Below are positions 10,893 to 42,252 of a stretch of DNA of 64,000 nt, one piece after another. The notes beneath the pieces are model-generated. The model was not told where the DNA came from, searched no databases, and worked only from the letters and a program-made list of their open reading frames with translations. Position 1 is the stretch's first letter. Every line of letters begins with the position of its first letter. The translations under genes and the position numbers were made by a program. This stretch comes from Leptospiraceae bacterium. GTDB taxonomy: Bacteria > Spirochaetota > Leptospiria > Leptospirales > Leptonemataceae. The stretch covers positions 553,669 to 617,668 of the forward strand of contig JAVJNR010000005.1 in assembly GCA_040217195.1 (NCBI GenBank). The letters are read 5' to 3'.

Positions 10893-11627
10893 TCATAGAG
10901 ATTCCATCATTTTTAGAACAGTCCGCAAAACCTTGATTCTTGCAAATCTCTTATCATTTGCCTCGATCAAATTCCAGGGAGCAAAGTCTGTATCCGTTCT
11001 ATCAAGCATCTCCTGAACAGCCTGCTCATATTCCGGCCACTTCTGCCTGTTTCGCACATCCTCTTCAGTGAACTTCCATTGCTTGAGCGGACTACTGGCA
11101 CGGGCCTGAAACCGATTGGCCTGCTCATCCTGGTCAATGTGCAGCCAGAACTTGGCCAGGTGAGTTCCTGCGCGATGAAGGCTCAGTTCCATGGAATTAA
11201 TCTCATCGTAGGCACGAGACCATTCTCTTGCAGATGCAAACCCTTCCACTCGCTCCACCAGAACTCGTCCATACCAGCTGCGATCAAAAATTGCAAGTCT
11301 GCCAGGCGGGGGCATCTGTCTCCAGAACCGCCATAGATAATGGCGCTTTTTTTCAAAAGGTTCCGGCGCCGCGATGGGTATTACCCGGTAAAGGACCGGA
11401 GGCATGGATGATGTTAGCCGTCGAATAGCTCCTCCTTTTCCACCCGCATCCTTGCCTTCAAAAACCAGAACAACGGATGCTTTCTTTCTATACATTTTCA
11501 AAGCAGCTTTAATAAGATCGGTTTGAAGCTTTTTCAATTCGCGCTTGTATCGGTCCTGAGCTATGCTTTGAGTTAGATCTACGGTTCGTAGATCCTGCTT
11601 TTTGCGAAATTGTATAGATTCTGACAT
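10893..11627 (-). CDS. ppk2: Polyphosphate kinase 2 family protein, intact catalytic domain
   Basis: FEGKDAGGKGG Walker A, IFDRSWYGRVLVERVEG, KFWLHI, APW. Confidence 0.92.
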   Translation of the reverse strand: MSESIQFRKKQDLRTVDLTQSIAQDRYKRELKKLQTDLIKAALKMYRKKASVVLVFEGKDAGGKGGAIRRLTSSMPPVLYRVIPIAAPEPFEKKRHYLWRFWRQMPPPGRLAIFDRSWYGRVLVERVEGFASAREWSRAYDEINSMELSLHRAGTHLAKFWLHIDQDEQANRFQARASSPLKQWKFTEEDVRNRQKWPEYEQAVQEMLDRTDTDFAPWNLIEANDKRFARIKVLRTVLKMMESL

Positions 11628-11654
11628 GAATGATCCCTGTGAGCCCTGGAAGTT

Positions 11655-12413
11655 CTAGCCCTTCCCATCCTTATTTTTCTGCTCTTTTTCCAGTTTTCGC
11701 ATAAGGGCCATGGCCTCATCATAAGAGGCAACAGCCTGACGCGAATCTACGTTTAATGCCTCTTCCATGCGAGCTATGAGATAATCCATCACCAGCCCTC
11801 GCACTTCCTTTCCTTTCCCTTCGGGAGGTGTAAACCAGGGAGCCCGGGCCGAACCGGTTTCCAGTAGAAGTTTATCCATTTCCCTGGTATAATCCTTGTA
11901 TTCATTGAGCAAGTATGTGGATCTTTTTCGCAGCAATGACGTCCTGGCTTTTAACTTCTTCTCCGACTTTAGTTCGGACTCCAATTCCCTGGGATTTCTC
12001 TGGAAGCGAATCTTCAGCACAAGATACTGGTTAGCCTCCAGGCTGGACTCGAAGCGATTGATGTCATCGATCCAGCCCTGCCGTTCTTTTCCGGAGATTT
12101 TTCCTTTAATGGTTCGCCGAACCAGTTCATGGTAATAGGAACCATCGAACATGGCCAGATCCCCGTACCTTGGCAGATGCATCCAATAATGGTGCAGAAA
12201 TGGATCTTTTCTTTCCGGTGCTGTTTCATACCCCGGAAAATGATGAACTTCGAAGTGTCTGGGATCCAGGCAGGAGCTCAACTCATCCACAGTATAAACG
12301 ATTCCAGCCAGGCCGGTACCTTCCAGAATCAGAAATACTCCGATTTGCTGGTTTTGAGCCGCCCGAAATAGCAGGGAGATTCTATCTGTCTTTTCCAGTT
12401 CGGGACTTTTCAC
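11655..12413 (-). CDS. Degenerate PPK2-fold protein
   Basis: LEGTGLAG (eroded Walker A), LDPRHF, YWMHLPRYG, MFDGSYY, APW; GTG start. Confidence 0.75.
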   Translation of the reverse strand: MKSPELEKTDRISLLFRAAQNQQIGVFLILEGTGLAGIVYTVDELSSCLDPRHFEVHHFPGYETAPERKDPFLHHYWMHLPRYGDLAMFDGSYYHELVRRTIKGKISGKERQGWIDDINRFESSLEANQYLVLKIRFQRNPRELESELKSEKKLKARTSLLRKRSTYLLNEYKDYTREMDKLLLETGSARAPWFTPPEGKGKEVRGLVMDYLIARMEEALNVDSRQAVASYDEAMALMRKLEKEQKNKDGKG

Positions 12414-16003: not shown

Positions 16004-16987
16004 CTATCTAGCGCCTCTACCTTTCTGGCTGGCCAGATATACATGTTTTCGAGCACGCATCACATCCCCCAGGGGTCGATGCTCGAATAATGCCTGCCAG
16101 GGGTCGAAGATTGCATTTTCAATGGTTTCCTGAATGGCCTCCAGCTCCTCCCCGGACTGGGCCGGAATGCTCAGCCGGCCCACAGTAACATAAGGTGCCT
16201 GTTTTTCCTTCCAGTCTACGGAAGCGTCTTCAATGGGAGTATGCTTTTCATCGGTAAAGAATTGTAACTGAAGATCCATGTGGATGGGCCCGGCTTTCAG
16301 ACGGTTCCTTATTTCATCACTCAGATCCATTGGTTTGGATGCACCTCTCTTTAGCCCAGGATCTGGAAGTAGACGGACTCGCACTGCATAGGGACCGCAT
16401 GCAATGGGAGCTGCAGAAAAGAACCGTTCGGTAACGAATCCGGAGAATCGGCGATTTACGGAAGCGCCCAGTTTCTTCATTCGCATGAGTCCGCCCAGAA
16501 AGCCATAGGTGGATATCATATGCTTTAGCAACGGTGCCGTTCCCTGAGCAGCCGCCTGGACCATCTGGACGAATTGTTCGCTTTTCGGAGAGGAAAAAGA
16601 AGGCAAATTGATTAACAGAAAATCCTGACAGTCCGTATTAATGCCCAGGGCCCCCGGACCATCCAGCCCGCGTACTTTGATCGCGAATCCACGGACATCA
16701 CCTATATTATCTGGCTGAACATTTAAACTACCATTGGAAAGTCGAATCCAGGCATCATGAAGTCCTGGAAAAGCGAAAAGACCGTGGCGAGCATGCTCGG
16801 GAATATCTCCCAGTACTTCCAGGGTTGCATTGAAGCCCAGAATCTGCTTTCGGTGCAGAGCCCGGCCCGGACCGAATTGCCTGGATTTCAGTTTTTGGAG
16901 TAAACCGAATTGTTTTGAGTATTTCTTAAACCTTTCTTCTTCATCGTCCGCTATTTCTTCTTTCCAGTCTGTTGAGGGTTGTTTCAT
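16004..16987 (-). CDS. Small catalase-like heme protein
   Basis: RALHRK distal His, IRLSNG, DVRGFAIKV, QDFLLIN, proximal RPLGDVMRARKHVY. Confidence 0.85.
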   Translation of the reverse strand: MKQPSTDWKEEIADDEEERFKKYSKQFGLLQKLKSRQFGPGRALHRKQILGFNATLEVLGDIPEHARHGLFAFPGLHDAWIRLSNGSLNVQPDNIGDVRGFAIKVRGLDGPGALGINTDCQDFLLINLPSFSSPKSEQFVQMVQAAAQGTAPLLKHMISTYGFLGGLMRMKKLGASVNRRFSGFVTERFFSAAPIACGPYAVRVRLLPDPGLKRGASKPMDLSDEIRNRLKAGPIHMDLQLQFFTDEKHTPIEDASVDWKEKQAPYVTVGRLSIPAQSGEELEAIQETIENAIFDPWQALFEHRPLGDVMRARKHVYLASQKGRGAR

Positions 16988-21055: not shown

Positions 21056-21436
21056 CTAATTCTGGAACGCTGTAGCGCGGCCGGATTGGCTTTCCAGGGC
21101 TAATAGGCGCTTTTCCAATTTCAGTATACGCGCTTCCAGTTCCTGGATTTGCTTCTGCGCTGCCCGGGCTTCCTGTAATCCCTTGATCTGCACCTTTCCG
21201 TCACGAACAATCAATTCATCACCTACAGTAAGTGGGCCCTTTATATAGACCATACCGTCCGCAGCTACTATCAGACTTGCACGGGCACCTATATGAACAT
21301 CCCCGGACGGACTCACTTCCAGAACCATACCGTCGGTCATTCGAGTAGCTGAATATTCAGGACTGGCTGATGATGCATCGTCGCAGCCAGTCATAAATAC
21401 TGGAATCAGAATTATCAAAACGGATAGTAGTTTCAT
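21056..21436 (-). CDS. Hypothetical lipoprotein with C-terminal coiled coil
   Basis: MKLLSVLIILIPVFMTGC lipobox; AAAGGAG RBS; heptads IQELEARILKLEKRLLALE. Confidence 0.75.
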   Translation of the reverse strand: MKLLSVLIILIPVFMTGCDDASSASPEYSATRMTDGMVLEVSPSGDVHIGARASLIVAADGMVYIKGPLTVGDELIVRDGKVQIKGLQEARAAQKQIQELEARILKLEKRLLALESQSGRATAFQN

Positions 21437-21476
21437 TGTTTCTCCTTTGTTTGCCCTTTGTTTCGCATCTGGATAT

Positions 21477-22481
21477 TTATTCGGTTTCCTGAATCGAAAT
21501 GGAACCAAAGGGTGCGCGTATGCGAAGAGGCCGATTGGGAATCTGCAACTCCTTCATACTATAATGGCCCGGAACCACATTGATTTCTCCGCCATGCTCC
21601 ACATTGTCTAGCGCATCCTGCATACTTTTAAAGGGAGCCTCTATACCACCTGTGGATGGCTGTTGCATTGGACCGATGGAATCCAGGTATATTGTTGGAC
21701 TTCCATTGGCATTGTTCAGCGCTTTCAGAAATCCAGGATTCAAAACCGATGTGGCGATGTTGGGGCAACCTCCTCCCCGATGCGTACCGTAGGCATACAA
21801 GCTTCCGGAGCTCTCTTGATAGAGCGGAGATCCGGAGCTTCCCATGTGAGTATCCGCATAATGTATCAAATATCCAGGGCTGTTATGAGCTGTGGCAACA
21901 CTGCTTTGCATGGTTCGATTTCGTTTTTTGCAGCCATCGAAGGTGCGTAATTCAACGCCAAAGCCTGTATTCTTTAGACTCTTTGACTCCTTTGCATCGA
22001 TTCTATGGTTACTGAGTCTGAAGAAATTTCCTTCTATGAAATAAGAGGGCATCCCCTGAGCATTTGGCTGGATGCGAAATATAGCCCAATCCTGGGTAGT
22101 CGGCAGATCGACTTTCAATTTCAGGGATTCCTGTAGTATCTGAAATCTGTCAGAGTCAGCGGGCAGCTGAATCTCACCTTTGCAGCTGGAGGCCGGAACC
22201 TGAAATTGCACTTCATCGAATCTATAGTACCCCGATGCACAATGTCCGGCGGTGACCAGCCATCCGTTGGGAGCAATCCAGGCAGTGCAGATAGCTTCTT
22301 CTCTTTCATTGAAATATAGGCGACCGACTGGATAATCTTGATCAGGGAGTCGATCGTCGGTATCACAGATGGTATTCATTCGGATTCTAGTCTCTCGCTG
22401 TTCAGCCATAAGACCGGACCAGAATACAAAAGTTAATAAAAGCAGTCCGACCATCAAAATGGAAATCATTCTGCGCTGCAT
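21477..22481 (-). CDS. Secreted trypsin/V8-like serine protease with short DUF1565-like C-terminal tail
   Basis: Signal peptide; catalytic triad motifs TAGHC, DWAIF, GSSGSP. Confidence 0.88.
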   Translation of the reverse strand: MQRRMISILMVGLLLLTFVFWSGLMAEQRETRIRMNTICDTDDRLPDQDYPVGRLYFNEREEAICTAWIAPNGWLVTAGHCASGYYRFDEVQFQVPASSCKGEIQLPADSDRFQILQESLKLKVDLPTTQDWAIFRIQPNAQGMPSYFIEGNFFRLSNHRIDAKESKSLKNTGFGVELRTFDGCKKRNRTMQSSVATAHNSPGYLIHYADTHMGSSGSPLYQESSGSLYAYGTHRGGGCPNIATSVLNPGFLKALNNANGSPTIYLDSIGPMQQPSTGGIEAPFKSMQDALDNVEHGGEINVVPGHYSMKELQIPNRPLRIRAPFGSISIQETE

Positions 22482-22811
22482 GAATCAAATGAATGCAGTA
22501 TGGCCAGGGTACTGTCAACTGAAAGGTCGGCAGGTCTGGCATTGCTTTCTTCCGATAGTTTTCTAAAAACCCTTGACCCTCAAAAGTAGAAGCTTAGCCT
22601 ATTGGGGCCTTCTGACCTGCTCACTGACTATTCTGTGCTATCTCGCAGTGAATCTAACTGACTGTTTTTCAAGCGTAGTTGATTCGGATGATCGGTGGCA
22701 TAAAGTGCAGATCATAGCTGGCCTTAGATATCATTGAGAATATCGCATTTCAATACCGTTTGAATGGGCTTATTCCTGTTTCCATTCATCTGGTCTGTCC
22801 GGGGAGTATTC

Positions 22812-24479
22812 ATGATCAAGACAGAGAATTCCATTCATCGCTTTTATCTGTACGTAGTGCATCATCCGCTTATTTCATCTTCGCTAGTTTTTTCAGCATT
22901 GCTCTTGATTGGTCTGCTACTTCAGAATCTAAGCGATGAATTCCTGTGGCCCAGCTACGCAGTAATGTGTCTTTTCTACTCTGCCATGTTCTACGTGGGA
23001 TCCAGAAGCGGAAAAAAAAGAGAAAACCTTTCAGACGAAAAAGAAGTGGAGGAGATGATTCTGGCCGGTCGCTCCCTTCCGCTGGGACTGGCTCTGTTCA
23101 CAATGACAGCTACCTGGGTAGGCGGAGGTTTCATTAATGGAACTGCAGAATCTGTGGCCGTGAATGGACTTGCATGGGCCCAGGCTCCCTGGGGTTATGC
23201 GTTGAGCCTTCTGTTCGGCGGAATCTTTTTGGCCAAGAAGATGAGATCCTACAATTTCTCCACTCTTCTGGATCCCATATCCGATCGCTTTGGCGATCGC
23301 ATGACAGCGTTGCTTTACATACCGGCTTTACTGGGCGAAGTATTCTGGACTGGAGCCGTACTTACAGCCCTGGGTACCACGTTTGGGAGTATTCTTGGAA
23401 TAGACTTTAATCTGGCCATTATTCTATCTGCATTGATTGCTATTACTTACACTGCGATTGGCGGTATGCGAGCGGTGGCCCATACGGACGTTCTACAGCT
23501 GGGAATATTGATCGTGGGTCTATGGCTGACGATTCCATTCCTCATTCCTGATGGAGCCAGCCTGGGCAGTATTTACGGAGATTACAAGACCGAAATGGGT
23601 CCCATGGCGAATCTGTTTCCTCCGCTGGAAGGCTGGAAAGACCCGAACTGGGGAGATTCCTACTTTCTATGGTGGGACTCTGCATTGCTTCTGATCTTTG
23701 GTGGCATTCCCTGGCATGTGTATTTCCAGAGAGTTCTTTCGAGCCAGAATGGGCAGGTAGCACGATGGCTTTCCATAGGTGCAGGTGGTCTTTGTATCGT
23801 CGCTGCTGCGCCAGCCATGATCATCGGGATGATAGGAGCCACCACGGATTGGAATGCCCTGGGACTGGAAGGCCCGGAAGTGTCGGCTGTTGTACTTCCC
23901 TACGTATTGCAGAACCTGGCTCCTGCTTTAATCGCAATCATTGGTCTGGGTGCACTGGCCTCCGCGGTAATGAGTAGTGCAGATTCTTCTATATTATCTG
24001 CCTCTTCTCTGGGTGCATGGAACGTATACAGACCGTTTTTCGCAAAGGGAAATCATTCAGAAATTCCAAAAGTCATTAAACGATTGATCTGGATTGTAGG
24101 AGTGGCTGCCACGCTTATCGCACTTCAAGTTAAGAGCGTCTATGCACTCTGGTTTCTGTGTAGCGATTTCGTATATTGTATTTTGTTTCCTCAGCTTATT
24201 CTTGCATTGTTCGACAGGAAGACAAATACCATCGGCAGTCTGGTTGGATTTATTGTAGCTCTATTCCTGCGTCTGGGAGGAGGAGAAGCTGTTCTGGGAA
24301 TTCCGACATTCCTGCCCTATCCGATGGTTGGTGAGGATGGAGTTGTAAACTTCCCCTTTCGCACACTGGCCATGCTTTCATCTATGGTGACCATCATTCT
24401 GGTTTCCCGGTTGACCCATACCTGGTCTCCTCCAAGACCGCTGGTAGTAAGAAAAACCTCCGACAGTCAGGAAGCATAG
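22812..24479 (+). CDS. Sodium:solute symporter, CHT1/SLC5A7-like probable choline transporter
   Basis: MTATWVGGGFINGTAE, GLAWAQAP, GGIPWHVYFQRVLSS, AVMSSADS, FPFRTLAM; first gene of the bet operon; GGGGAG RBS. Confidence 0.9.
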   Translation: MIKTENSIHRFYLYVVHHPLISSSLVFSALLLIGLLLQNLSDEFLWPSYAVMCLFYSAMFYVGSRSGKKRENLSDEKEVEEMILAGRSLPLGLALFTMTATWVGGGFINGTAESVAVNGLAWAQAPWGYALSLLFGGIFLAKKMRSYNFSTLLDPISDRFGDRMTALLYIPALLGEVFWTGAVLTALGTTFGSILGIDFNLAIILSALIAITYTAIGGMRAVAHTDVLQLGILIVGLWLTIPFLIPDGASLGSIYGDYKTEMGPMANLFPPLEGWKDPNWGDSYFLWWDSALLLIFGGIPWHVYFQRVLSSQNGQVARWLSIGAGGLCIVAAAPAMIIGMIGATTDWNALGLEGPEVSAVVLPYVLQNLAPALIAIIGLGALASAVMSSADSSILSASSLGAWNVYRPFFAKGNHSEIPKVIKRLIWIVGVAATLIALQVKSVYALWFLCSDFVYCILFPQLILALFDRKTNTIGSLVGFIVALFLRLGGGEAVLGIPTFLPYPMVGEDGVVNFPFRTLAMLSSMVTIILVSRLTHTWSPPRPLVVRKTSDSQEA

Positions 24480-24480
24480 A

Positions 24481-25989
24481 ATGAAGTTTGGAACACTAAA
24501 AAGCTTTATCAACGGAAAGTACTCCGAAAAAGATTCAGGCAGGTATATAAGCATAGAGTATCCGGCCACAAATGAAACCATAGGTAAAGCCTCCGTGGCC
24601 GATGAGGCAGAACTTCAGAAGGCTGTGGATCTGGCCAGAGCTGCGCAGCAGAAATGGGCAAGACTATTACCCGCCGAGAGAGCAAGGATCCTTCATCGCA
24701 GCTCCCTCTTGATTCGCGAAAAAAACGATGAACTGGCAGCTCTGGAGGTGTGGGATACGGGCAAGCCCATCCAGGAAGCTCTCAGCGTAGATATAGTCTC
24801 CGGAGCCGATGCGGTGGAATACTTCGCCCATGCAGCAGCCCTGCTCAAGGGAGACTATTATCCGCTGGGAAACAACTATGCCTATTCCGTACCTGAACCC
24901 CTGGGCGTTGTTGGAGGAATTGGTGCCTGGAATTATCCATTTCAGATCGCATGCTGGAAATCTGCGCCGGCTCTGGCCGGCGGCAATGCTATGATCTATA
25001 AGCCCAGCGAGCTTACAATGATGACAGCCCTTAAACTGGCTGAAATCTATCAGGAGGCCGGTCTGCCAGATGGCCTTTTTCAAGTTCTACTAGGAGATGC
25101 AGAACTGGGAAAGGCCATGGTTTCGCATCCAGACATTCACAAGATTTCCTTAACCGGCGAAGTGGGCACGGGAAAGAAGATCATGGCCAGCGCCGCAGCA
25201 ACTCTGAAGCATGTAACTCTGGAACTGGGCGGAAAGTCCCCACTGATCATTTTTGAGGATTCTGATATTTCGAACGCTGTGCAGGCAGCCATGATGGCCA
25301 ACTTCTATACCCAGGGTGAAATTTGCTCCAATGGAACCAGAGTCTTTGTACATTCCTCAATACAAGACAAGTTCCTTGCTGAATTAAAGCGCTGTTCCGA
25401 TAAATTAATAATCGGCGATCCCATGGATCCAGATACCCAGATTGGAGCTTTGATCGATGCGAAGCATTTTAAGAAGGTAAGGGGTTATATAGATTTGGGC
25501 ATAAAAGGCGGAGCCCATCGATTTCTGGGTTCGGATGAATTGATTCTGAATCAATCGTCGGTTTCAGATAAGGATTATGGCCGAACTGTAAGTGAATTGA
25601 AGAATGGTAACTTTGTAGCTCCCACAGTTTTTACAGAGTGCAAAGATGAAATGCAAATCGTATGCGAAGAGATTTTCGGACCGGTAATGAGTGTGCTTCG
25701 CTTTGACGAAGAGGAAGAGGTAATTCGAAGAGCAAACGATACACCTTTCGGTCTGGCTGCCGGTCTTTTTACCAAAGATGTAAATCGAGCTCATAGAGTG
25801 AGTCAGTCATTGCAGGCAGGAATAATATGGGTGAACAACTATAATCTCACTCCCATTGAAATACCATTTGGTGGGTACAAACAATCAGGGATTGGCAGAG
25901 AGAACTCCGTAGAAGCATTAAGGCATTATACCCAGATAAAAACCATTTTTGTGGAAACGGGTGATGTGGACTCTCCCTATCGGATTTGA
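24481..25989 (+). CDS. betB: Betaine-aldehyde dehydrogenase
   Basis: GIGAWNYPFQIA, TLELGGKSP, GEICSNGTR, EEIFGPV, PFGGYKQSGIGRE. Confidence 0.93.
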   Translation: MKFGTLKSFINGKYSEKDSGRYISIEYPATNETIGKASVADEAELQKAVDLARAAQQKWARLLPAERARILHRSSLLIREKNDELAALEVWDTGKPIQEALSVDIVSGADAVEYFAHAAALLKGDYYPLGNNYAYSVPEPLGVVGGIGAWNYPFQIACWKSAPALAGGNAMIYKPSELTMMTALKLAEIYQEAGLPDGLFQVLLGDAELGKAMVSHPDIHKISLTGEVGTGKKIMASAAATLKHVTLELGGKSPLIIFEDSDISNAVQAAMMANFYTQGEICSNGTRVFVHSSIQDKFLAELKRCSDKLIIGDPMDPDTQIGALIDAKHFKKVRGYIDLGIKGGAHRFLGSDELILNQSSVSDKDYGRTVSELKNGNFVAPTVFTECKDEMQIVCEEIFGPVMSVLRFDEEEEVIRRANDTPFGLAAGLFTKDVNRAHRVSQSLQAGIIWVNNYNLTPIEIPFGGYKQSGIGRENSVEALRHYTQIKTIFVETGDVDSPYRI

Positions 25990-26091
25990 GCAAGAGCATC
26001 AAGGCGCAAATGCAAAAGTAATTGAATTCAGAGCAAAAAGTAGTACCAGCAGAAGGTTCCATTCCAGAGGCTTCGAGAACAGGAGAAGAAG

Positions 26092-27771
26092 ATGGCAGAT
26101 CTATATGATTACATAATTGTGGGCGGCGGTTCAGCCGGATGCGTTCTGGCCAATCGACTTAGCCAGGATCCGGACAATCAGGTATTGATGTTAGAAGCGG
26201 GTCGCCCGGATTATATCTGGGATCTTTTTATCCACATGCCGGCGGCGCTCACAATCCCCATCGGAAACAAAAATTATGATTGGATGTACGAATCTGCTCC
26301 TGAGCCCCATATGGATGGTCGCAAAGTCTATCATGCAAGAGGCAAGGTGCTGGGCGGCTCCAGTAGCATCAATGGAATGATCTTTCAACGAGGCAATCCG
26401 ATGGACTATGAAAAATGGGCCAGAATTCCGGGTCTTGAAAACTGGGACTATGCTCATTGCCTGCCCTATTTCAAGCGAATGGAATCCTGTATGGCAGAGA
26501 AACCAGCTTCTGAGTCCAGGCACAACACAAGTCCTCGAAGTCGCAGTCGTCCATTTCGCGGAATTGAAGGTCCCCTATGGCTGGAACGAGGTCCTGGAAT
26601 CAATCCATTGTTCAGCGCTTTTCTTGAAGCCGCGGAACAGGCCGGCCATCCACGCACAGACGATGTAAACGGCTACAAACAGGAAGGGTTTGCCTTGTTC
26701 GATCGAAATGTGAAGCAGGGCCGACGATGGAGCGCTGCCAGGGCCTATTACCATCCAGTGAAGCATCGCAAGAATTTGGAACTACGAAGTAAGGTACTTA
26801 CATCCAGGATCATTTTTGAAGGAAAGAGAGCCGTTGGAGTTGAATATAGAAAGGGTAAGAAGATCCACCAGGTAAGAGCTAAAGAAGTAATACTTTGTGC
26901 AGGAGCGTTCAATAGCCCACAATTGCTACAATTGTCTGGAGTCGGAGAAAGGAAACATCTGCAGGATCTGGGAATCAATGTAGTCCATGAACTGAACGGT
27001 GTGGGCCAGAATCTGATGGATCATCTTGAGGTCTACGTTCAGTACAAATGCCTGAAACCAGTATCCATGAATCCTGCATTGAAACTCTGGCGAAAACCTT
27101 TTATCGGTTTACAATGGCTGTTTCGCAAGGGACCGGCAGCAACCAACCATTTCGAAGCAGGTGGTTTTATTAAGAGCAACTCAAGGGAAGGCTATCCCAA
27201 CCTGATGTTTCATTTTCTGCCCCTGGCCATTCGATACGACGGTTCCTCACCGGAAGGAGGTCATGGCTACCAGGTGCATGTTGGCCCCATGTTCTCAGAT
27301 GCTCGCGGGCATGTGCGAATCAAATCCACCGATCCTTCCCAGCATCCAGAAGTGTTATTCAACTATTTGAGTACAGAACAGGACAGAAGAGAATGGGTGG
27401 AAGCGATTGAAAGAGCAAGGGAGATTCTAAGTCAACCTGCAATGAAACCGTTTAACGGTGGAGAGATATCACCGGGTCCGGATGTAAAGACTCCAGAACA
27501 GATTCTTAAATGGGTGGCCGACGATGCAGAAACTGCATTGCATCCGTCGGGAACCTGCAAGATGGGTCGAGATGATCTGGCCGTTGTGGATCCGGACACT
27601 TTCAAGGTCCATGGCATGGAAGGCCTTCGAGTGGTTGATGCATCTATAATGCCCATCATTACGAATGGCAACATTTACGCCCCGGTCGTCATGATGGCCG
27701 AGAAGGCTTCGGATGCCATTTTAGAAAATACTCCACTGGCACCTGAGTATCTGGATTTCTACAAAGCCTGA
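26092..27771 (+). CDS. betA: Choline dehydrogenase (GMC oxidoreductase)
   Basis: [52 protein letters not shown]. Confidence 0.95.
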
Positions 27772-27852
27772 TTAAAGTAGCTTGCCTCTCCCCAGGTAGA
27801 GAACCCAATGGAGGGACCTTCGTCTAAATACGGAGTTTCCAGGAGAGGTTAT

Positions 27853-29268
27853 ATGACTCGTAAAAGGCTATACTTCGGTGCAGCAACAATTCTGTTTTTG
27901 TTTAGCTCCCTTTCGTTACAGGCAAAGCCCACAGGTGACCAGGTCAGTGAGGCTACCTGCGATTTCAATCTACCGCAGGTACAGAAATATGTAGCCCAGG
28001 GATGGGGAATCAACGATCCGTTGAGTTCCGATTCTGGTGCCACTGCCCTAACACTTGCATCCTATTGCTACGGTGGTAGTGCAGAGATCGCTGCCTGGCT
28101 CATTCAGAGAGGCGCAGATGTAAATAAGCACGACAGGAACAACTATTCCAATCTGATGTGGGCCCTTCGCAGCGTAGATGACCTGGGCGATGGAATGCAT
28201 AAGGTTGTATGGGATATGATCCGTCGAGGCGCCAGTGTAAACTGGCAGGATCCCACCACCGGTCGCACTGCACTTATGCTAGCTTCCAGCAACGGAGATC
28301 TGGACATGGTAAAGGACTTAATCCGTCGCGGGGCCGATCGAAATATGAGAACAAAAGGCGATTGGTGCATCTCTGACAATTATGATGTCCAATGCACCGC
28401 TATGGATTATGCGAGACTGGACGGTCATGTTCAGGTAGCACTCTATCTGGAAGGAAAAGATACAAACGCTTATGAAAGAACCCTTCATTACGCTGCCAAA
28501 TCAGGCGATCTGGAAAAAGTAAGGTCATTGATCCAATCCGGAGCTGATGTAAACGAAGCAGAAGAGATGTCGAAATTGACTCCGCTTCACTATGCAGCTA
28601 GAAGCAACAACCTGCCTATAGTAAAACTTCTACTGAGTTCAGGGGCAAAACCATCTCCCCAGGATTATGTGGGAATCACACCTCTTCGAGATGCAATAGT
28701 AAATTATAGGAAGGAGCTGGCCACGGTTCTGATTGAAGCCGGCGCTTCCGGAAGTTCCGAACAATTGCAAGGCTGCGGCGGCGGACTAACCGAGTTCGGC
28801 TGGGCCATGAACTACAGTCAGTATGATATCGCAAAGCTGCTTATAGAGAAGAATGCCCTGGATTTGAAGGGCGGCTGGTCTATCTTCAGAGAAATCGATG
28901 GAGCAAGCGAGGAGACTGTAAAAATAGCAGAAATGGTTCTGGTTCGTGGCGCCAAACCACCGGAAGACTATATCTCAGTGCTTCAGAAATGGGAAGGTGA
29001 GTATGATTTCAAATTTGTGCCACAGATCATAGCACTGGTAAAGAAACATGAGCAAAAGCCAGTCATTCCAATTCCAAGTATCCTCATCCCGGATAATCCG
29101 GATTTCGAATCTGTGGCTCCTCCCAGTCCTGCAGCTCTCAAGAATCTACAGATTCGCAATCGCTCGTTGAAGCCGGACCCGGAGGTTCAGCGAGCCATCG
29201 ACCGTAGCCATCAATTCTACGAAAAGGGAGATAGGATATCTCCAGACGCTCACTTCCCTGCAAAGTAA
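27853..29268 (+). CDS. Secreted ankyrin repeat protein
   Basis: Signal peptide; GRTALMLAS, TLHYAAKSG, LTPLHYAA, GADVN repeats; AGGAGAGG RBS. Confidence 0.9.
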   Translation: MTRKRLYFGAATILFLFSSLSLQAKPTGDQVSEATCDFNLPQVQKYVAQGWGINDPLSSDSGATALTLASYCYGGSAEIAAWLIQRGADVNKHDRNNYSNLMWALRSVDDLGDGMHKVVWDMIRRGASVNWQDPTTGRTALMLASSNGDLDMVKDLIRRGADRNMRTKGDWCISDNYDVQCTAMDYARLDGHVQVALYLEGKDTNAYERTLHYAAKSGDLEKVRSLIQSGADVNEAEEMSKLTPLHYAARSNNLPIVKLLLSSGAKPSPQDYVGITPLRDAIVNYRKELATVLIEAGASGSSEQLQGCGGGLTEFGWAMNYSQYDIAKLLIEKNALDLKGGWSIFREIDGASEETVKIAEMVLVRGAKPPEDYISVLQKWEGEYDFKFVPQIIALVKKHEQKPVIPIPSILIPDNPDFESVAPPSPAALKNLQIRNRSLKPDPEVQRAIDRSHQFYEKGDRISPDAHFPAK

Positions 29269-29273
29269 CGTCT

Positions 29274-30809
29274 CTAGCCCTGACCCGGGTTCGCCCGGGC
29301 ATGGCTGAATGCTTGTTCAAAAGCATCGTTTATTAAGGAAGGATCTTCAAGACCAATCGAAATTCGAAATAGGCCTGGATCCATATGCAAGTGCTCCAGT
29401 AGCTTCCGTCCATCTTCCGTGGAAACCAGTTCGTAATGAGCCAGATACATATAGAGCATAACCAGAGTAAAGTCTGTGCCAAATGAAGGCCCTTTCAATA
29501 CCTGCAAAGAATCGTAAACGGACTCCATGGACGATGCCACTTCCATGGTAATCATTCCGCCAGGGAGCACACTTCCATCATGCTTTCGGGCTATTCGATT
29601 GTAATTTTCAGCCCAGGGCCCACGATCTGCCCGAAATAACTTTCGCACAGAAGGGTTCTTCTCCCACAAATCTCCAAGGATATTCAGGTTCCTTCCAATT
29701 TGAATCATTCGATTCTGGTATCCAGGAATTCTATGAGCCATACGATCCGAATCTGCAACATAGGGTACTTCCAGGTATTCATTTAAGGTACCTGCAATTT
29801 CATCGTGAAATCTGGAAGATGGATTCAGCATCACAGCACCCATCATTACATCGCATGAGCCACTTGCAAACTTGGTCAGGCTTTCCACCACAACATCGCA
29901 ATAGGGCAGCGCATCCACGCATACAGAGCTGCCCACAGAAATATCGGATAGCAAAGCGCAGCCTTCGGACTGACAAATATCATATAGTTCTGGCATGTCT
30001 GGAGTTTGCAGCAACGGATTTGTGGGCAGCTCCGTAATTACTCCGGCCACACGACCTGCCTGTTCCTTAATTACCCGTCGAAGTTCATTCAGATTACTCA
30101 GATCGTAGACTTTTTCCGAGGCAACGGCAAATTTCTCCAGAATGCGAATGTTATCTACATAAAGCCAGCCCAGTTGAATCCAGATATCCCTTCCCTTCTT
30201 TTTCTGGATTTCCTGAATGGAGCGAAAGGCGCCATAGATTCCGTTCATTCCACTCACGGAAAGAAATACATCCCGTGTGTTCAAATGATTCAGGCCTGCC
30301 ATTTCCTTTTGAACCAGCTCCGGTCCTGTACCTTTTCTGACACGCTCTTCGGTTTGCTCTTCTTGTAGCAAGTTTCGGTCCAGAAGAAACCTTTCCGCAC
30401 GACGAGAACTAACCAGACAACCGGTATGCTGAATAAAACTAAGCAAATAACCGGCCCTGGTCTCATCCTCCGGCAGGGGAAAAGCCACAATACCATCCTC
30501 TTCAATCAGTTCGGTTGTATGGTGACCGGCCCAGGAAAACAGATCATCCGCCGCTCGCCGGGAAGATACCACAACACATGGATTCCGGGAAAAAGATGGC
30601 TGAAAATAAGATACAAGTTCGGTGACGTAGGGATGCGCAACAAAACGCGGATAACCGGATTTGATGCGACTCATGGTTTCTGAACGTTTCTCTTCGTAAC
30701 CAATTACATCGGCCACAGCTGGTAGACTTACAGAAACTGCATGAACGGTACTGCCTGGAATCCTCCCGCCGACCTCCGGGATGGCAATCTTTCCGGAATC
30801 AATAGCCAT
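29274..30809 (-). CDS. PLP-dependent Cys/Met metabolism transferase (cystathionine gamma-synthase-like, long form)
   Basis: HAVSVSLP, GYPRFVAHP, SGMNGI, ELPTNPLL, ESLTKFASG (PLP Lys), GPSFGTDFT, RISIGLED; start overlaps the rpiA stop (TGATG). Confidence 0.88.
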   Translation of the reverse strand: MAIDSGKIAIPEVGGRIPGSTVHAVSVSLPAVADVIGYEEKRSETMSRIKSGYPRFVAHPYVTELVSYFQPSFSRNPCVVVSSRRAADDLFSWAGHHTTELIEEDGIVAFPLPEDETRAGYLLSFIQHTGCLVSSRRAERFLLDRNLLQEEQTEERVRKGTGPELVQKEMAGLNHLNTRDVFLSVSGMNGIYGAFRSIQEIQKKKGRDIWIQLGWLYVDNIRILEKFAVASEKVYDLSNLNELRRVIKEQAGRVAGVITELPTNPLLQTPDMPELYDICQSEGCALLSDISVGSSVCVDALPYCDVVVESLTKFASGSCDVMMGAVMLNPSSRFHDEIAGTLNEYLEVPYVADSDRMAHRIPGYQNRMIQIGRNLNILGDLWEKNPSVRKLFRADRGPWAENYNRIARKHDGSVLPGGMITMEVASSMESVYDSLQVLKGPSFGTDFTLVMLYMYLAHYELVSTEDGRKLLEHLHMDPGLFRISIGLEDPSLINDAFEQAFSHARANPGQG

Positions 30810-31510
30810 CAGGGTTCCAGAATTTTCACTCCAGAGGATTCTCCTACCAGGACTCTCGCAGGTCTGCAACGAGCGAATATCCCGTTCTCCACTACTCCGG
30901 AGATTGAGTTTAATTCCTTTTCCATGGCTTCTGGATGAAAGGAATCGAACCTGACATCCAGGATCAAGTTTCCATGGTCTGAGATAACAGGGCCGTCTTT
31001 TCGCAGGGCCATTCTTAGGCTTACTTCCCGGGCTCCCAGGCGCTCCAGTTCATGTCGAACAACGTTAATGGCCTGCGGCAAGATTTCCAGTGGAACAGGA
31101 GTCCTTTCCCCCAGACGAGAAACTAGTTTAGAGCCATCCACCAGGCAAATAAAGCAATTGGACAACGAATGGACAATCTTCTCCAGGGTATGCGCCGCCC
31201 CTCCACCTTTGATTAGATTCAGGGCCGGATCCACTTCATCGGCTCCGTCCAGAGATAAATCCAGTTCCTCAAAACTTTCCACCGGAAATACACGAAGACC
31301 TGCTTCTCTGGCAAATTGCATGGACTGATACGAGGTGACACAATAATCGCATTTCAAGGATTCCGTATTCTGCAAACGGCCCAGTTCTTCAATTGCGATG
31401 GCTGCGGTAGAACCGGTTCCCAGACCCACTGTCATACCACTTTTTACATGTTTTACAGCTTCCAGGGCTGCAAGCCTCTTGGATTCTTTGTTGGCGTCCG
31501 GTTGTCTCAC
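30809..31510 (-). CDS. rpiA: Ribose-5-phosphate isomerase A
   Basis: GLGTGST, DGADEVD, LIKGGGAA, GVVENGIF. Confidence 0.97.
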   Translation of the reverse strand: MRQPDANKESKRLAALEAVKHVKSGMTVGLGTGSTAAIAIEELGRLQNTESLKCDYCVTSYQSMQFAREAGLRVFPVESFEELDLSLDGADEVDPALNLIKGGGAAHTLEKIVHSLSNCFICLVDGSKLVSRLGERTPVPLEILPQAINVVRHELERLGAREVSLRMALRKDGPVISDHGNLILDVRFDSFHPEAMEKELNSISGVVENGIFARCRPARVLVGESSGVKILEP

Positions 31511-37008: not shown

Positions 37009-38052
37009 TTAATGGTCCTTTTTTTCTCCCAGAGCATGGTCCAAAAGCATTCCGGCGGCTTCAAAAGGAGACAACGTACCCTCCGTTACACGATTTCGAA
37101 GTTCCGTCCTGTACTGTCTGGAATCCGGGTTCTCCAGGATTCGGTTTCGGACCAGTTCTGACAGATATTCATTCATCCAGTACACAGCCTGGCCTTTGCG
37201 CCGACTTTCGAAATGGCCGTTTTCGCCCATGGATTCTTTAAAATTCTCCAGCAGACTATAGATATCATCCAGGCCCATGCCGGTCATGGCGCTAGTAAGT
37301 ATCACCTGGGCCCTCCATCCATGATCAGCCGGAGGAAATAACTCCAGGGCCCTGCGATAATCTGCAGCAGCAATCTTGGCTTTCTTTTCATTTCCAGAAT
37401 CGGACTTGGTAATGGCTATTCCGTCAGCCATTTCCATGATGCCCCGCTTCATTCCCTGAAGCTCATCTCCTGCGCCGGGTAGCATCAGGAGTAAAAAGAA
37501 ATCCACCATAGAATGAACGATGGTCTCACCCTGCCCGACTCCAACGGTTTCAATCAGGATTCTATCAAAGCCGGCCGCTTCGCACAGAATCACACTCTCT
37601 CTGGTTTTTCGGGCCACTCCTCCCGGGGATCCACCGGAAGGACTGGGTCGGATGTATGCGTTCTCTTCCCTGGTCAGAGCCTCCATTCTGGTTTTGTCCC
37701 CCAGAATGGAGCCTTTACTTCGTTCCGAAGATGGATCGATGGCCAACACAGAAAGCTTATGCCCCCTTTCCAGCATCAGTTGTCCGAAGGATTCTATGAA
37801 AGTGCTTTTTCCAACTCCAGGAATTCCGGTTATTCCAATGCGAAGGGAGTTACCTGCATGTGGCAAGCAGGCATGAATCACTTCCGAGGCAAGGTGCTGA
37901 TCCTCCGGAAGAGTGCTTTCAGTCAGTGTAATTGCCTGACTGAGGATGACACGATTTCCGGATCGCACTCCCTCAATGTACTCGGCAGCACTTTTTCGCC
38001 TGGGGCCTCGATCGAGACCACCGGAAAGCAGCCGTGGATTGAATGGAGGCAT
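37009..38052 (-). CDS. meaB: Methylmalonyl-CoA mutase-associated GTPase
   Basis: GITGIPGVGKST, DPSS, GSILGDKTRM, ETVGVGQ, GDELQGMKRG. Confidence 0.96.
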   Translation of the reverse strand: MPPFNPRLLSGGLDRGPRRKSAAEYIEGVRSGNRVILSQAITLTESTLPEDQHLASEVIHACLPHAGNSLRIGITGIPGVGKSTFIESFGQLMLERGHKLSVLAIDPSSERSKGSILGDKTRMEALTREENAYIRPSPSGGSPGGVARKTRESVILCEAAGFDRILIETVGVGQGETIVHSMVDFFLLLMLPGAGDELQGMKRGIMEMADGIAITKSDSGNEKKAKIAAADYRRALELFPPADHGWRAQVILTSAMTGMGLDDIYSLLENFKESMGENGHFESRRKGQAVYWMNEYLSELVRNRILENPDSRQYRTELRNRVTEGTLSPFEAAGMLLDHALGEKKDH

Positions 38053-40208
38053 TAACCTGCCTGTGCCTGCGGCTCTTTACCCAGAAGAATTTTTAGAATG
38101 GATGCAGCGGCCTGGGGAATTACAGTACCTGGACCAAATATAGCGGCTGCTCCTGATTCATACAGAAAATCGTAATCCTGCTGAGGAATCACTCCGCCCA
38201 CAACAACAAGGATGTCAGATCGATCCAGCTTCTTCAGTTCTTCCACAACCTGAGGCACCAGGGTTTTATGCCCGGCAGCCAGGGAAGATACTCCCAGGAT
38301 ATGTACATCGTTTTCTACTGCCTGCCGTGCCACCTCTTCCGGAGTTTGAAATAGAGGTCCGATGTCCACGTCGAATCCCAGATCAGCAAAGCTAGTAGAA
38401 ATGACTTTCGCACCCCGGTCATGACCGTCCTGACCCATTTTCGCTACAAGGATTCTTGGTCTACGACCCTCTTTCTCAGCAAACTCATCTGCCAGGGCTG
38501 TGGCATTTCTAAAATCTTCGTTATTTTCAATCTCGGAAGAATACACTCCTGATATACTACGAATAACGGCTTTGTATCGTCCAAAAACTTTTTCCATGGC
38601 CTGAGAAATCTCTCCCAGACTGGCCCGTTTCCTGGCTGCCTGAACGGCCAGATCCAGTAAGTTCCCTTCTCCGGATTCTGCACATCGGGTAATGGATTCC
38701 AGAGCCTGCTGGCATTCCTCAGCGTTGCGTTCACGACGGAGCTTGTCCAAGCGCTCCAATTGAGACTTTCGCACTGCAGTATTATCAATATCCAGAATTT
38801 CTAACGGATCATCGGAATCGCTCTTGAATCGATTGATTCCCACAATCACATCCCGCCCAGAATCAATACGGGCCTGTTTTCTGGCGGCCGCTTCTTCGAT
38901 TCTCATCTTTGGCAGTCCGGTTTCAATGGCTTTGGCAATGCCTCCCAGCTCTTCCACTTCTTCGATAAGCTTCCAGGCTCTGCGAGCCAGCAGATTGGTT
39001 AGAGCTTCTACGTAATAACTACCGGCCCAGGGATCCACAGCCCGGGTAATGTCCGTTTCATCCTGAAGGAAAAGCTGTGTGTTTCTGGCAATACGAGCGG
39101 AGAAATCTGTGGGCAATGCAATGGCTTCATCCAGAGCATTGGTATGTAATGACTGAGTATGACCCAGTGCAGCCGACAGTGCCTCCACGCAGGTTCTCGC
39201 AACGTTGTTATACGGATCCTGTTCGGTAAGGCTCCAGCCGGAGGTCTGGCAATGGGTTCGCAAAGCCATGGATTTAGGATTTTTTGGGTCGAATTGATTT
39301 ACCAGTTTGGCCCAGAGTAATCGACCGGCTCGCATTTTAGCAATCTCCATAAACTGATTCATGCCTATGGCCCAGAAAAAGGAGATTCTGGGGGCGAATT
39401 CGTCTACAGTGAGGCCGGCAGACATTCCGGTGCGAAGGTATTCCAGGCCATCGGCCAGTGTATAGGCCAGTTCAATATCTGCAGTGGCACCAGCTTCCTG
39501 CATATGGTAGCCAGAAACACTGATTGAGTTAAATTTAGGCATTTTCGCAGAAGTATAGGAGAAAATATCTGCGATGATCTTCATGGATGGACCCGGCGGA
39601 TAAATATAGGTGTTTCGCACCATGAATTCTTTGAGAATATCGTTTTGAATGGTACCGGTTAGCTTTTCTGGAGGTACTCCCTGCTCTTCACCAGCCACTA
39701 TGAAAAAGGCAAGAACCGGTATCACCGCTCCATTCATGGTCATGGAAACAGATACAGAATCCAGAGGTATTTGATTGAATAGAACCTCCATATCCAGAAT
39801 TGAATCGATGGCCACTCCAGCTTTACCTACATCGCCCACAACCCTGGGATGATCTGAGTCGTAGCCGCGATGTGTCGCCAGGTCAAATGCAACGCTCAAA
39901 CCTTTCTGACCGGCAGCCAGGTTTCGACGATAGAATGCATTGGATTCCTCTGCAGTGGAGAATCCGGCGTATTGACGGATGGTCCAGGGACGAGTGACAT
40001 ACATTGTAGAGTAAGGTCCTCGTAAATAAGGAGCCACACCAGCTCCAAATCCAGGGTGCTCCAGTCCGGTGAGTGCATCGGCACCGTAGGCGGACTGCAC
40101 AGGGATTCCTTCCGGCGTATTCATGGCCAGATCATCGGAAACCTGGCTTTTTGAGCTTCCTCCGCTGGAGATGGGCGAGTAACTTAATTTGCTAAAATCC
40201 GGTTTCAT
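38052..40208 (-). CDS. mutB: Methylmalonyl-CoA mutase, catalytic large subunit
   Basis: [18 protein letters not shown]12-binding GQDGHDRG. Confidence 0.97.
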
Positions 40209-40248
40209 AATCTAATCCTTATCTTGTCTGGCTGCCAGAGACTCTCTT

Positions 40249-42252
40249 TTAAGATTCCTTCTTATGCGAGCCCACGCTAGAGCCCAGGATTCGTTTTTGA
40301 AGATCCACCAGTGTGGCAAAAACATTCGATTTTAGATGAATGAATTCAACAATACCCTTCTCCGTAAGGGAATCTCGATTCTCTGGACTACCGGCGATAA
40401 TAACTGGCAGGCCTTTTTCTTTTGCAATAGGCAGAATCTGGTCCGCCAGTTCTTCGTACTCTTCATCGCTGGAACAAAGAGTAAGCGCAACAATAGATGT
40501 ACTTTTTCCAAGCCGGTCCTTTAGATAGGTTGCGGCCTCTTTCGAATTTCCCAGAGAACCCGGATCTTCCACCGAGAAACCAGCACAGCCAAGGAAATTC
40601 TGCGAAAATGCAGCACGAGCCCTTTGCATTGCCAGTTTTCCCGCAGGAATAAGAAGAATTTCCGGGCGAAAGCCTTTGCTGGATGCCACCGATTGGAAGT
40701 GAATTCTAAGATCTTCAAAGCCTGATGTGGCCCTTCCAAATTTCACTGGAGGCACAGCCTTACCTTTGGCATCGTCGCTTTGAAGTTGAACCCCGTTGAT
40801 CCAGTGAGCGGAATACGGATCGAATCTCTTATCTTTCACCTCTTCTTTCAGAGAGGGATACTGGTTCACCCCAACATAGGTAGATTGTCGGCTTTCCACC
40901 TTACCCAGGGCCTCTGCAAGCTGCTGCGATAGTTTCTTCTGGATAGCACCGGACTTCAGGTTCTGAAGAAAGCCACCATTGCTTTCCAGTTCCTGAAAAT
41001 CCTGAAAAGCGGCGGCGGCCAGCTCATCGGTCAGATTCTCCAGATAGTAGGAGCCACCGCCAGGGTCGGCTACCTGCTGAAGGTAACTTTCATGACGTAT
41101 CAGGTTTTGAATATTTCGCGCCATCCTTCTGGAAAAGGCATCCTCTCGATCTGTAATCAAGTGAAACGGATGTACTGTATGTCTTTGCGAACCACCCAGC
41201 ACAGCACTGATAGATTGCGTGGTGGAGCGAAGCAGATTCGTGTAGGGATCGAGAGCAGACAGTTCGAAAACAGAGGTTTCTGTGGACTGATAAAGAGCCG
41301 CCGCATCCTTCCACTGGCCCGTAGTTTTTCCTTCATTTTCCAGAGTCTTCGCATACGCGCTGGCAATTTGCGCCCATAGATATCTGGCCGCTCGAAGCTG
41401 AGCCACTTCAGGAAAGAAACTGGAGGATACTGCACTGCGAACATGGACCGCTTTTAGAGCTTCCTGGAATTCCAGCCCCAGCTCAAGTAGAGAGGCTAGA
41501 TAGTAGGAAGCCAGTGAAAGACCAAGGCTTAGCTGAGTTCTATTGTTAGCACCTGCGTAGCGAAACAGATGGGCACTGACAGAAAAAAACGGGCGACTTC
41601 CTTTCTTTAAAAAATCGGCTGCTGCCTCCAGGTCTTCTGTGAGCTCCGTTTCCATGGCCGATGCTTCTACCGCGCCTGTGCGTAGATAACGCGCCACCGG
41701 ATCCACAGAAATAAGAACCTGATCAGATGATTTTGTTGCAGCCCAGCCCAATAGCGCGGCTGCATCCTTCATGTGAATCTCCAGATCCAGATTTACTGAT
41801 ATCCGGCTCAGATCGATTTTCTCACAGAATTCCGCTGCATGGCCCGCATAGGATGCATCGTTTACCAGTAGTCTCAAACTACCCAGTTCATGATTGTAAA
41901 ACTCCTGGAGCAATGCATCCAGCTGCGCTTCTTTATGATGCAGAGAAAAGTCGATGGTTTGCTCCGTAAGCCAGACATTGCTCCTGGAACGAATGCCTCT
42001 AAGGTAAGGGAACCTACCGGGCACATGACTTTCCAGGCCCTGGGGCTTTTCCTCCGGAACATAGAATGGCTTTAGTGTGAATCCCTCTCCGGTTTTCCAG
42101 TCCAGTTTGCCCAGAGCTTTTTGGGGATCCTCCGGATTCTTAAGATCTTTCAGTATCTTTTCTTCCCAGGATTTGCGATCCAGGGCAGAGAAATCTTCGA
42201 ATAATTTCAGGTTCGGTTCTGGAAATAGTTCCGGGTCCAGCTTGGCGCTCAT
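40249..42252 (-). CDS. mutA: Methylmalonyl-CoA mutase small (non-catalytic) subunit
   Basis: FPYLRG, NLLRSTTQ, RMARNIQ, DPGGGSYY, CSSD; lacks DxHxxG. Confidence 0.92.
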   Translation of the reverse strand: MSAKLDPELFPEPNLKLFEDFSALDRKSWEEKILKDLKNPEDPQKALGKLDWKTGEGFTLKPFYVPEEKPQGLESHVPGRFPYLRGIRSRSNVWLTEQTIDFSLHHKEAQLDALLQEFYNHELGSLRLLVNDASYAGHAAEFCEKIDLSRISVNLDLEIHMKDAAALLGWAATKSSDQVLISVDPVARYLRTGAVEASAMETELTEDLEAAADFLKKGSRPFFSVSAHLFRYAGANNRTQLSLGLSLASYYLASLLELGLEFQEALKAVHVRSAVSSSFFPEVAQLRAARYLWAQIASAYAKTLENEGKTTGQWKDAAALYQSTETSVFELSALDPYTNLLRSTTQSISAVLGGSQRHTVHPFHLITDREDAFSRRMARNIQNLIRHESYLQQVADPGGGSYYLENLTDELAAAAFQDFQELESNGGFLQNLKSGAIQKKLSQQLAEALGKVESRQSTYVGVNQYPSLKEEVKDKRFDPYSAHWINGVQLQSDDAKGKAVPPVKFGRATSGFEDLRIHFQSVASSKGFRPEILLIPAGKLAMQRARAAFSQNFLGCAGFSVEDPGSLGNSKEAATYLKDRLGKSTSIVALTLCSSDEEYEELADQILPIAKEKGLPVIIAGSPENRDSLTEKGIVEFIHLKSNVFATLVDLQKRILGSSVGSHKKES

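Follow-up and report, generated by a model that had tools for sequence, protein, structure and literature searches.

How does a spirochaete import choline for betaine synthesis when none of the usual importers lies beside its synthesis genes? In textbook bet and gbs clusters, this step falls to BetT or to OpuB/OpuC. The question is raised by a 64,000-nucleotide (nt) stretch of Leptospiraceae bacterium contig JAVJNR010000005.1 (GCA_040217195.1, positions 553,669-617,668; hereafter the window), in which a sodium:solute symporter (SSS) gene, cht, heads three co-directional open reading frames (ORFs). A bacterial relative of the human choline transporter CHT1/SLC5A7 has already been described: sfCHT from Salimicrobium flavidum carries out Na+-dependent, hemicholinium-3-sensitive choline uptake, and its cryo-EM structures are available as Protein Data Bank (PDB) entries 9RWS and 9RWT (Vilchez-Garcia et al., Sci Adv 2026, PMC13220886). 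The features of the locus are:

22812..24479, forward strand: cht, CHT1/SLC5A7-type sodium:solute symporter of 555 amino acids with an sfCHT-like N-terminal helical extension (PF00474, PDB ranking, site residues, tree, AlphaFold and Foldseek)
24481..25989, forward strand: betB, betaine-aldehyde dehydrogenase of 502 amino acids (over the NF009725 cut-off, under that of TIGR01804; 52% identical to E. coli BetB)
26092..27771, forward strand: betA, FAD-dependent choline dehydrogenase of 559 amino acids (over the TIGR01810 and NF002550 cut-offs; 54% identical to E. coli BetA; single genomic copy)
22801..22806, forward strand: GGGGAG, ribosome-binding site of cht (from the sequence, with a similar GGAG before the same ATG in four same-genus relatives, L001-L004)

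Our answer, to which we assign a probability of roughly 0.8, is that Cht imports choline driven by Na+, that BetA and BetB oxidise it, and that the resulting glycine betaine is stored as an osmoprotectant. The enzyme assignments rest on 820 bits for BetA against a TIGR01810 cut-off of 732 and 856 against 605 for NF002550, while BetB passes NF009725 (715 bits, cut-off 593) and falls short of TIGR01804 (611, cut-off 669). The TAG of cht ends at 24479 and the betB ATG stands at 24481, in agreement with the first-pass annotation of this DNA, which had an SSS gene leading betB-betA with its stop 1 nt from the betB start. betA begins 102 nt past the betB stop, and the three genes likely form one operon. 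The ORF finder opened the cht frame at 22764, a disfavoured start; 22812 is better supported because the ribosome-binding site precedes it and the four same-genus relatives begin at that codon.

No BetT/CudT, ABC importer, or BetI/GbsR/CudC regulator was found within the locus, which thus differs in make-up from a textbook bet/gbs/cud cluster. The first-pass annotation had remarked on the lack of such genes; this holds for the locus but not for the genome, where one BCCT transporter is encoded on another contig. Compared with betT-betIBA of E. coli, the betB-betA order is the same and the enzymes have the identities given above, but the importer is an SSS protein rather than the BCCT-type BetT, and BetI is missing.

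Identity of the transporter

Cht matches PF00474 (SSS). When ranked against the PDB, it scores 631 bits with sfCHT (9RWS/9RWT), 413 bits with human CHT1 (E-value 2.7e-122), and 34 bits with vSGLT, the E-value of the next SSS protein in the PDB being 1.3e-7. The likeness to SLC5A7 that was first recognised from short motifs is therefore borne out, and every motif named at that time was recovered, at protein positions 98, 108, 119, 171, 297, and 514. An AlphaFold model of Cht, built on a 78-sequence alignment, has a pLDDT of 90 and a TM-score of 0.85 with human CHT1 by target length. The top nine Foldseek matches to this model are all human CHT1 (E 1e-28 to 1e-26), compared with 1e-13 for SGLT2; 9RWS and 9RWT are absent from the matches listed.

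Could the symporter instead be a proline or pantothenate carrier of the PutP/PanF type that lies beside betBA by chance? Weak matches of Cht to TIGR02121 and TIGR02119 are all that point this way, and their 66 and 52 bits compare with cut-offs of 516 and 328. We also built an IQ-TREE phylogeny (LG+C20, 49 rows, 504 columns, rows hand-picked from an 86-row FastTree set), in which all 42 CHT rows, Cht included, form one clade (100/99, with long outgroup branches), while E. coli PutP, PanF, and ActP and other SSS proteins fall outside it. The E. coli proteins also lack the choline cage, the full form of which occurs in none of the eight outgroup SSS proteins. Scores and tree together refute this alternative, whose probability we regard as negligible, and Cht is, as judged by its sequence, a CHT1/SLC5A7-type protein. 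The grouping with PutP or PanF that the first-pass annotation had named as fatal to its proposal did not appear.

Site residues were mapped onto a mammalian CHT1 (P0129, Sapajus), with roles taken from two papers (PMC11589582; PMC13220886). The cation-pi cage residues W62, Y91, W141, and W254 in human numbering correspond to W102, Y129, W179, and W301 in Cht, and W406 corresponds to W447. With these, five of the six choline-cage aromatics are kept, the sixth, human Y67, being F107; the first-pass annotation had suggested such a check of the choline-site Trp and Tyr residues on CHT1. Also kept are the Na2 residues (A100, V103, A385, S388, and S389), the Na3 residues (D226, D391, and S392), the VGGG chloride loop, and the cytoplasmic exit path, where R47, Q259, R260, and S263 become R87, Q306, R307, and S310. 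Across 199 bacterial rows (78 locus ORFs and 120 database proteins, the window's included, partly overlapping), the equivalents of W62, Y91, W141, W254, W406, D188, S346, S347, D349, S350, Q259, and R260 show no substitution.

By analogy with sfCHT and CHT1, choline would enter through Cht together with sodium, driven by the sodium gradient. The four cation-pi aromatics would cage it with W447 as the outer gate, Na+ would be bound at Na2 and Na3, and release would follow the R87-Q306-R307-S310 path. BetA and then BetB would oxidise the choline, and the glycine betaine so formed would probably be retained for osmoprotection. Cht would fill the place that BetT or OpuB/OpuC holds in textbook bet/gbs clusters. 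The host genome (4.6 Mb, 94% complete, with one cht and one betA) also carries nqrA, for a subunit of the Na+-pumping NADH dehydrogenase, over its cut-off.

Cht shares family and length class with sfCHT and matches all of its residues R84, W99, Y126, W176, Q226, W298, Q303, R304, S307, and W445. The two are about 52-55% identical, as judged through L049, an orthologue from Salimicrobium halophilum with 22 mismatches to sfCHT over 527 aligned residues, counted by eye (about 96% identical). Unlike sfCHT, Cht has F107 for Tyr, H302 for Q299, F448 for Tyr, and NGT for AGT after the chloride loop. With human CHT1 (PDB 8J74 and 9BFJ), as far as the available portion of its description goes (PMC11589582), it shares Na2, Na3, the chloride-loop glycines, and the five cage aromatics, and it is 45-47% identical to a mammalian CHT1. 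Unlike the human protein, Cht is extended at its N-terminus by about 40 residues, which include another pair of helices, and lacks a long C-terminal tail; it has Phe at the Y67 position and would feed betaine rather than acetylcholine synthesis.

Gene neighbourhoods and probable betaine routes of the host

Gene context points to choline well beyond the window, in the kind of count of co-occurrence with betAB that the first-pass annotation had proposed. A search of GTDB genomes gave 148 matching stretches; the 80 best of them, taken with flanks of up to 6 kb, are the loci counted here, and 65 of these are at least 13 kb long. Within 6 kb, betA is present in 32 of the 80 loci, betB in 45, and either of them in 48; the last figure rose to 49 when the count was repeated with Bacillota queries, through a doubtful aldehyde dehydrogenase match in L018. 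A cudC/gbsR regulator occurs in 51 loci, at just 36-39% identity in four of them, and a betaine enzyme or such a regulator in 62. Two more loci carry a gene that best matches phosphatidylcholine synthases, under the cut-off, which brings the loci with any choline-linked gene to 64 of 80. By phylum, these are 6/7 in Spirochaetota, 5/9 in Planctomycetota, 51/56 in Bacillota, 1/2 in Bacteroidota, 1/1 in Pseudomonadota, 0/4 in Actinomycetota, and 0/1 in Calditrichota. CudC, BetB, BetA, and GbsB from representative loci score over their curated cut-offs.

The layouts differ between groups. Spirochaetes and planctomycetes have co-directional cht-betB-betA or cht-betA, Bacillota have divergent clusters with GbsR/CudC, and some loci have pcs-like neighbours, which suggests that the linkage of cht to choline genes arose more than once. 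In L049, cht is divergent from betB-betA-cudC, unlike the co-directional, regulator-free arrangement of the spirochaete window. The pcs-like genes adjoin CHT-type genes in L072 (1393-2319, in a record labelled Luminiphilus) and L078 (108-821), a second choline-consuming context. In two Pirellulaceae loci, L010 (3836-5611) and L013 (3165-5929), BCCT and CHT genes both lie beside betA, and L013 also has a divergent MarR regulator.

These neighbourhoods bear on earlier work. B. licheniformis and B. megaterium have an SSS gene in their gbsR-gbsAB clusters, and it has been speculated, according to the available portion of the report (Ronzheimer et al., 2018, PMC6207618), that this gene encodes a choline importer. 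The window shares with these clusters an SSS gene beside betaine-synthesis genes, but has BetA in place of the iron-containing GbsB and no GbsR repressor in a divergent layout, nor any other regulator in the locus. The SSS genes of B. paralicheniformis, B. haynesii, and P. megaterium are of the CHT type and 53-55% identical to Cht, which links the proposal made in 2018 with the biochemical work of 2026 (Vilchez-Garcia et al., 2026, PMC13220886). The alternative choline-uptake route put forward for the window thus stands as a reading of the context, but the idea had been voiced for Bacillus. Likewise, the window's protein belongs to the family that offers a prokaryotic model of SLC5A7, a model that is not new, as sfCHT already has assays and structures.

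In the portions available, the sfCHT study reports homologues across bacterial genomes and lists ten from bacteria, none of them from a spirochaete; it leaves the chloride dependence of sfCHT open and calls the physiological roles of prokaryotic CHT1 homologues unclear. Its main text, as far as available, makes no mention of operon, betB, genomic context, horizontal, or Leptospir (PMC13220886). Beyond this study and that of 2018, we found no literature tying CHT-type transporters to betA/betB or to Leptospirales, in a search that left subscription journals mostly uncovered. Bacterial CHT1 itself is already published, and what is new here is the cross-phylum neighbourhood evidence for its role: in several phyla, the L049 locus included, the neighbours suggest that choline is salvaged to make glycine betaine, and those in two loci suggest phosphatidylcholine as the product. 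As NCBI names cht-type genes just 'sodium:solute symporter family protein', a CHT-type importer may be present in genomes with no apparent choline importer.

The host appears to have further access to betaine. Its BCCT gene (G000:C1 275731-279260 region; L106 5732-9260) faces a pair of methyltransferases for glycine/sarcosine and sarcosine/dimethylglycine, the first over its cut-off and the second under, which is a predicted de novo route from glycine to glycine betaine. The BCCT protein scores higher on the glycine-betaine BCCT model, yet under the cut-off (584 against 650). In its transmembrane helix 3, Gly takes the place of the Asp of E. coli BetT. A search of the whole genome, which is 94% complete, gave no match to OpuAC, no BetI or CudC over cut-off, and no pcs-like gene. 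If our reading is right, the host has three betaine routes, namely glycine methylation, BCCT uptake, and choline salvage, of which the last would be cheaper than three methylations dependent on S-adenosylmethionine (SAM).

Among 61 Leptospirales genomes (7 of the genus, 30 others in the family, and 24 in the sister family), a close cht is present in 7/7 genus genomes and a more distant one in 1/30 of the other family genomes, while none of the 24 sister-family genomes has more than a ~30% SSS match to Cht. The window's family accounts for all 12 of the 61 genomes with betA and for all 22 with the glycine methyltransferase. Relatives of Cht at 89-94% identity come from records of Leptonemataceae, Leptospiraceae, or Spirochaetaceae.

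Points against choline import and betaine storage, and the Phe/His subclade

Several observations weigh against this account. Choline import by Cht is predicted by analogy with sfCHT and CHT1, and a saline habitat is predicted from gene content only. The 80 loci, as the best of 148, are mostly related Bacillota, clustered by kinship and not independent, and 16 of them, including all four from Actinomycetota, have no choline-linked neighbour. The 1-nt coupling of cht to betB is not fixed, as the gap varies between 0 and 218 nt among relatives. Three same-family genomes of another genus (L107-L109) carry betA without a close cht and without betB or a transporter beside it. At the site itself, Cht has F107 where human CHT1 has Y67, and two further changes lie nearby, Q255 to H302 and Y407 to F448. 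The available portion of the human CHT1 study reports that Y67A abolishes transport (PMC11589582).

Imported choline might also serve catabolism, the betaine being a source of carbon, nitrogen, or energy rather than a stored solute. Enzymes of the BetA family feed electrons to respiration, as BetA would in this case, and no osmo- or choline-responsive regulator was found in the locus or, over cut-off, in the genome. The sfCHT paper, in the portion available, names betaine breakdown as a possible use (PMC13220886). The host, however, spends SAM on making betaine from glycine, which fits storage, and its genome yielded no soxB (sarcosine oxidase beta subunit) or choline sulfatase, in a catabolism search that covered two families only and did not extend to betaine demethylases. 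We consider breakdown unlikely and retain storage as the fate of the betaine.

The altered site residues raise another question, namely whether Cht and its nearest kin carry other substrates in place of choline or besides it (for example glycine betaine, betaine aldehyde, or a sulfonium choline analogue) or have lost chloride coupling. Positions 107 and 302 both lie in unwound helices lining the choline site, and they vary together: 75 of the 199 bacterial rows have the pair Phe/His (F/H), 119 have Tyr/Gln, four are mixed, and one is gapped. The F/H pair is the mark of one clade (100/100), made up of the spirochaete and planctomycete rows, and so probably reflects one inherited event and not repeated covariation. 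Phe at the Y67 position is found in 77 of the 199 rows and in some eukaryotic rows too. Moreover, Cht keeps all four cation-pi aromatics and both Na sites, and F/H members stand directly before betA in Planctomycetes (L011, L013, and L060) and before betB-betA in spirochaetes. A shift in substrate or in chloride coupling is, in our view, slightly less probable even than betaine breakdown, and choline remains the most likely substrate.

In a separate, large, long-branched subclade of CHT proteins from Acidobacteriota (P0132, P0334, P0366, and P0410), Y91 is replaced by Phe, Q255 by Asn, and the Na3 residue D349 by Ser, the last of which perhaps means one Na+ site fewer.

Origin of cht, its upstream region, and other genes

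In the IQ-TREE phylogeny, the nearest neighbours of Cht are other Leptospirales (100/97), and the next are Planctomycetota (100/100). This placement and the patchy distribution suggest an old lateral transfer; the cassette may have reached the lineage by a transfer common to Planctomycetes. The third-position GC content (GC3) of cht, betB, and betA is 0.46-0.48, matching the genome (0.487, sd 0.031), so any transfer is taken to be old rather than recent. A full-length cht relative occurs in one of 72,556 plasmid records, typed non-mobilizable and situated among flagellar genes, and was not counted as evidence of plasmid mobility.

That such a protein gave rise to SLC5A7, as first suggested for this gene, is not shown by the trees. 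The 13 rows taken as eukaryotic (five with source names from a mammal, a tardigrade, a tick, a tunicate, and a fish, and a sixth from an opalinid protist; the remainder, like several bacterial rows, assigned by sequence look and tree position) form one clade (100/100) nested among bacterial lineages in the best tree, and bacteria form a single clade in 0 of 200 bootstrap trees. An approximately unbiased (AU) test nevertheless does not reject a sister split of bacteria and eukaryotes (p-AU 0.374), and the 86-row FastTree shows that split apart from two long-branch rows. The root hangs on long branches, and the trees leave a bacterial ancestry of CHT1 undecided. Cht lies far from the bacteria-eukaryote split and, at 44.8% identity to mammalian CHT1, is no closer than L049, which has the same value. 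The opalinid protein, P0172, is a divergent CHT1 homologue from outside animals that forms, with its sister row, one branch inside the eukaryotic clade.

A broader scenario, which we hold as tentative and rather doubtful, is that the neuronal transporter stems from a bacterial osmoprotection importer that entered eukaryotes early, that CHT is a widespread, laterally moved third module of bacterial choline uptake serving betaine or phosphatidylcholine synthesis, and that the F/H subclade represents natural variation at the choline/chloride site. If so, this spirochaete-planctomycete subclade would test why CHT1 needs chloride.

Upstream of cht, one candidate element can be named:

22573..22600, forward strand: predicted sigma-70-type promoter, TTGACC, 16 nt, TAGCCT, about 205 nt 5' of the cht start (conserved spacing; putative function)

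The 9-mer CCCTTGACC occurs 10 times in the 4.6 Mb genome. Both the window and 4/4 same-genus upstream regions examined have it at that 16-nt spacing from an nAnnnT hexamer, and TTGACC-N16-nAnnnT is kept in 5/5 genus upstream regions examined. A consensus promoter scanner did not list this candidate; its promoter and terminator counts for the window were at chance level, and no terminator was found after betA. An Rfam search of the window gave no match, with no riboswitch or RNA family in the cht leader. Leader folding has a z-score of -0.14 in the window and of -0.41 to -3.27 in four relatives, but the alignment is poor and no conserved structure is claimed. In one RNA run, 0.05 of the sequence words were present, and two runs gave just two 151-base contigs at depth 2 in cht and short matches from other organisms; these two runs thus provide no evidence of transcription, operon structure, or habitat.

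Further upstream, the reverse strand encodes a divergent trypsin-like secreted protein with a LIC10774-like tail (21477-22481) and a small coiled-coil lipoprotein (21056-21508). The trypsin-like protease gene is kept 5' of cht in four same-genus loci, with a reverse TTGACA near 22513 as its possible promoter. Downstream of betA, an ankyrin gene (27808-29268) was left out of the module, as it follows betA in just two related loci. Beyond it on the reverse strand, 29274-30869 encodes a pyridoxal phosphate enzyme that scores best with the BesB dechlorinase/desaturase model, at 397 bits against a cut-off of 800; no bes cluster was seen, and the product is probably a cystathionine gamma-synthase-like protein. 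The reverse strand also carries a 327-amino-acid ORF at 16004-16987 with no Pfam match at 1e-5, which we take to resemble a short catalase-related heme protein, an ordinary methylmalonyl-CoA mutase pair with MeaB (37009-42252), and a tandem pair of PPK2 genes (10893-12413).

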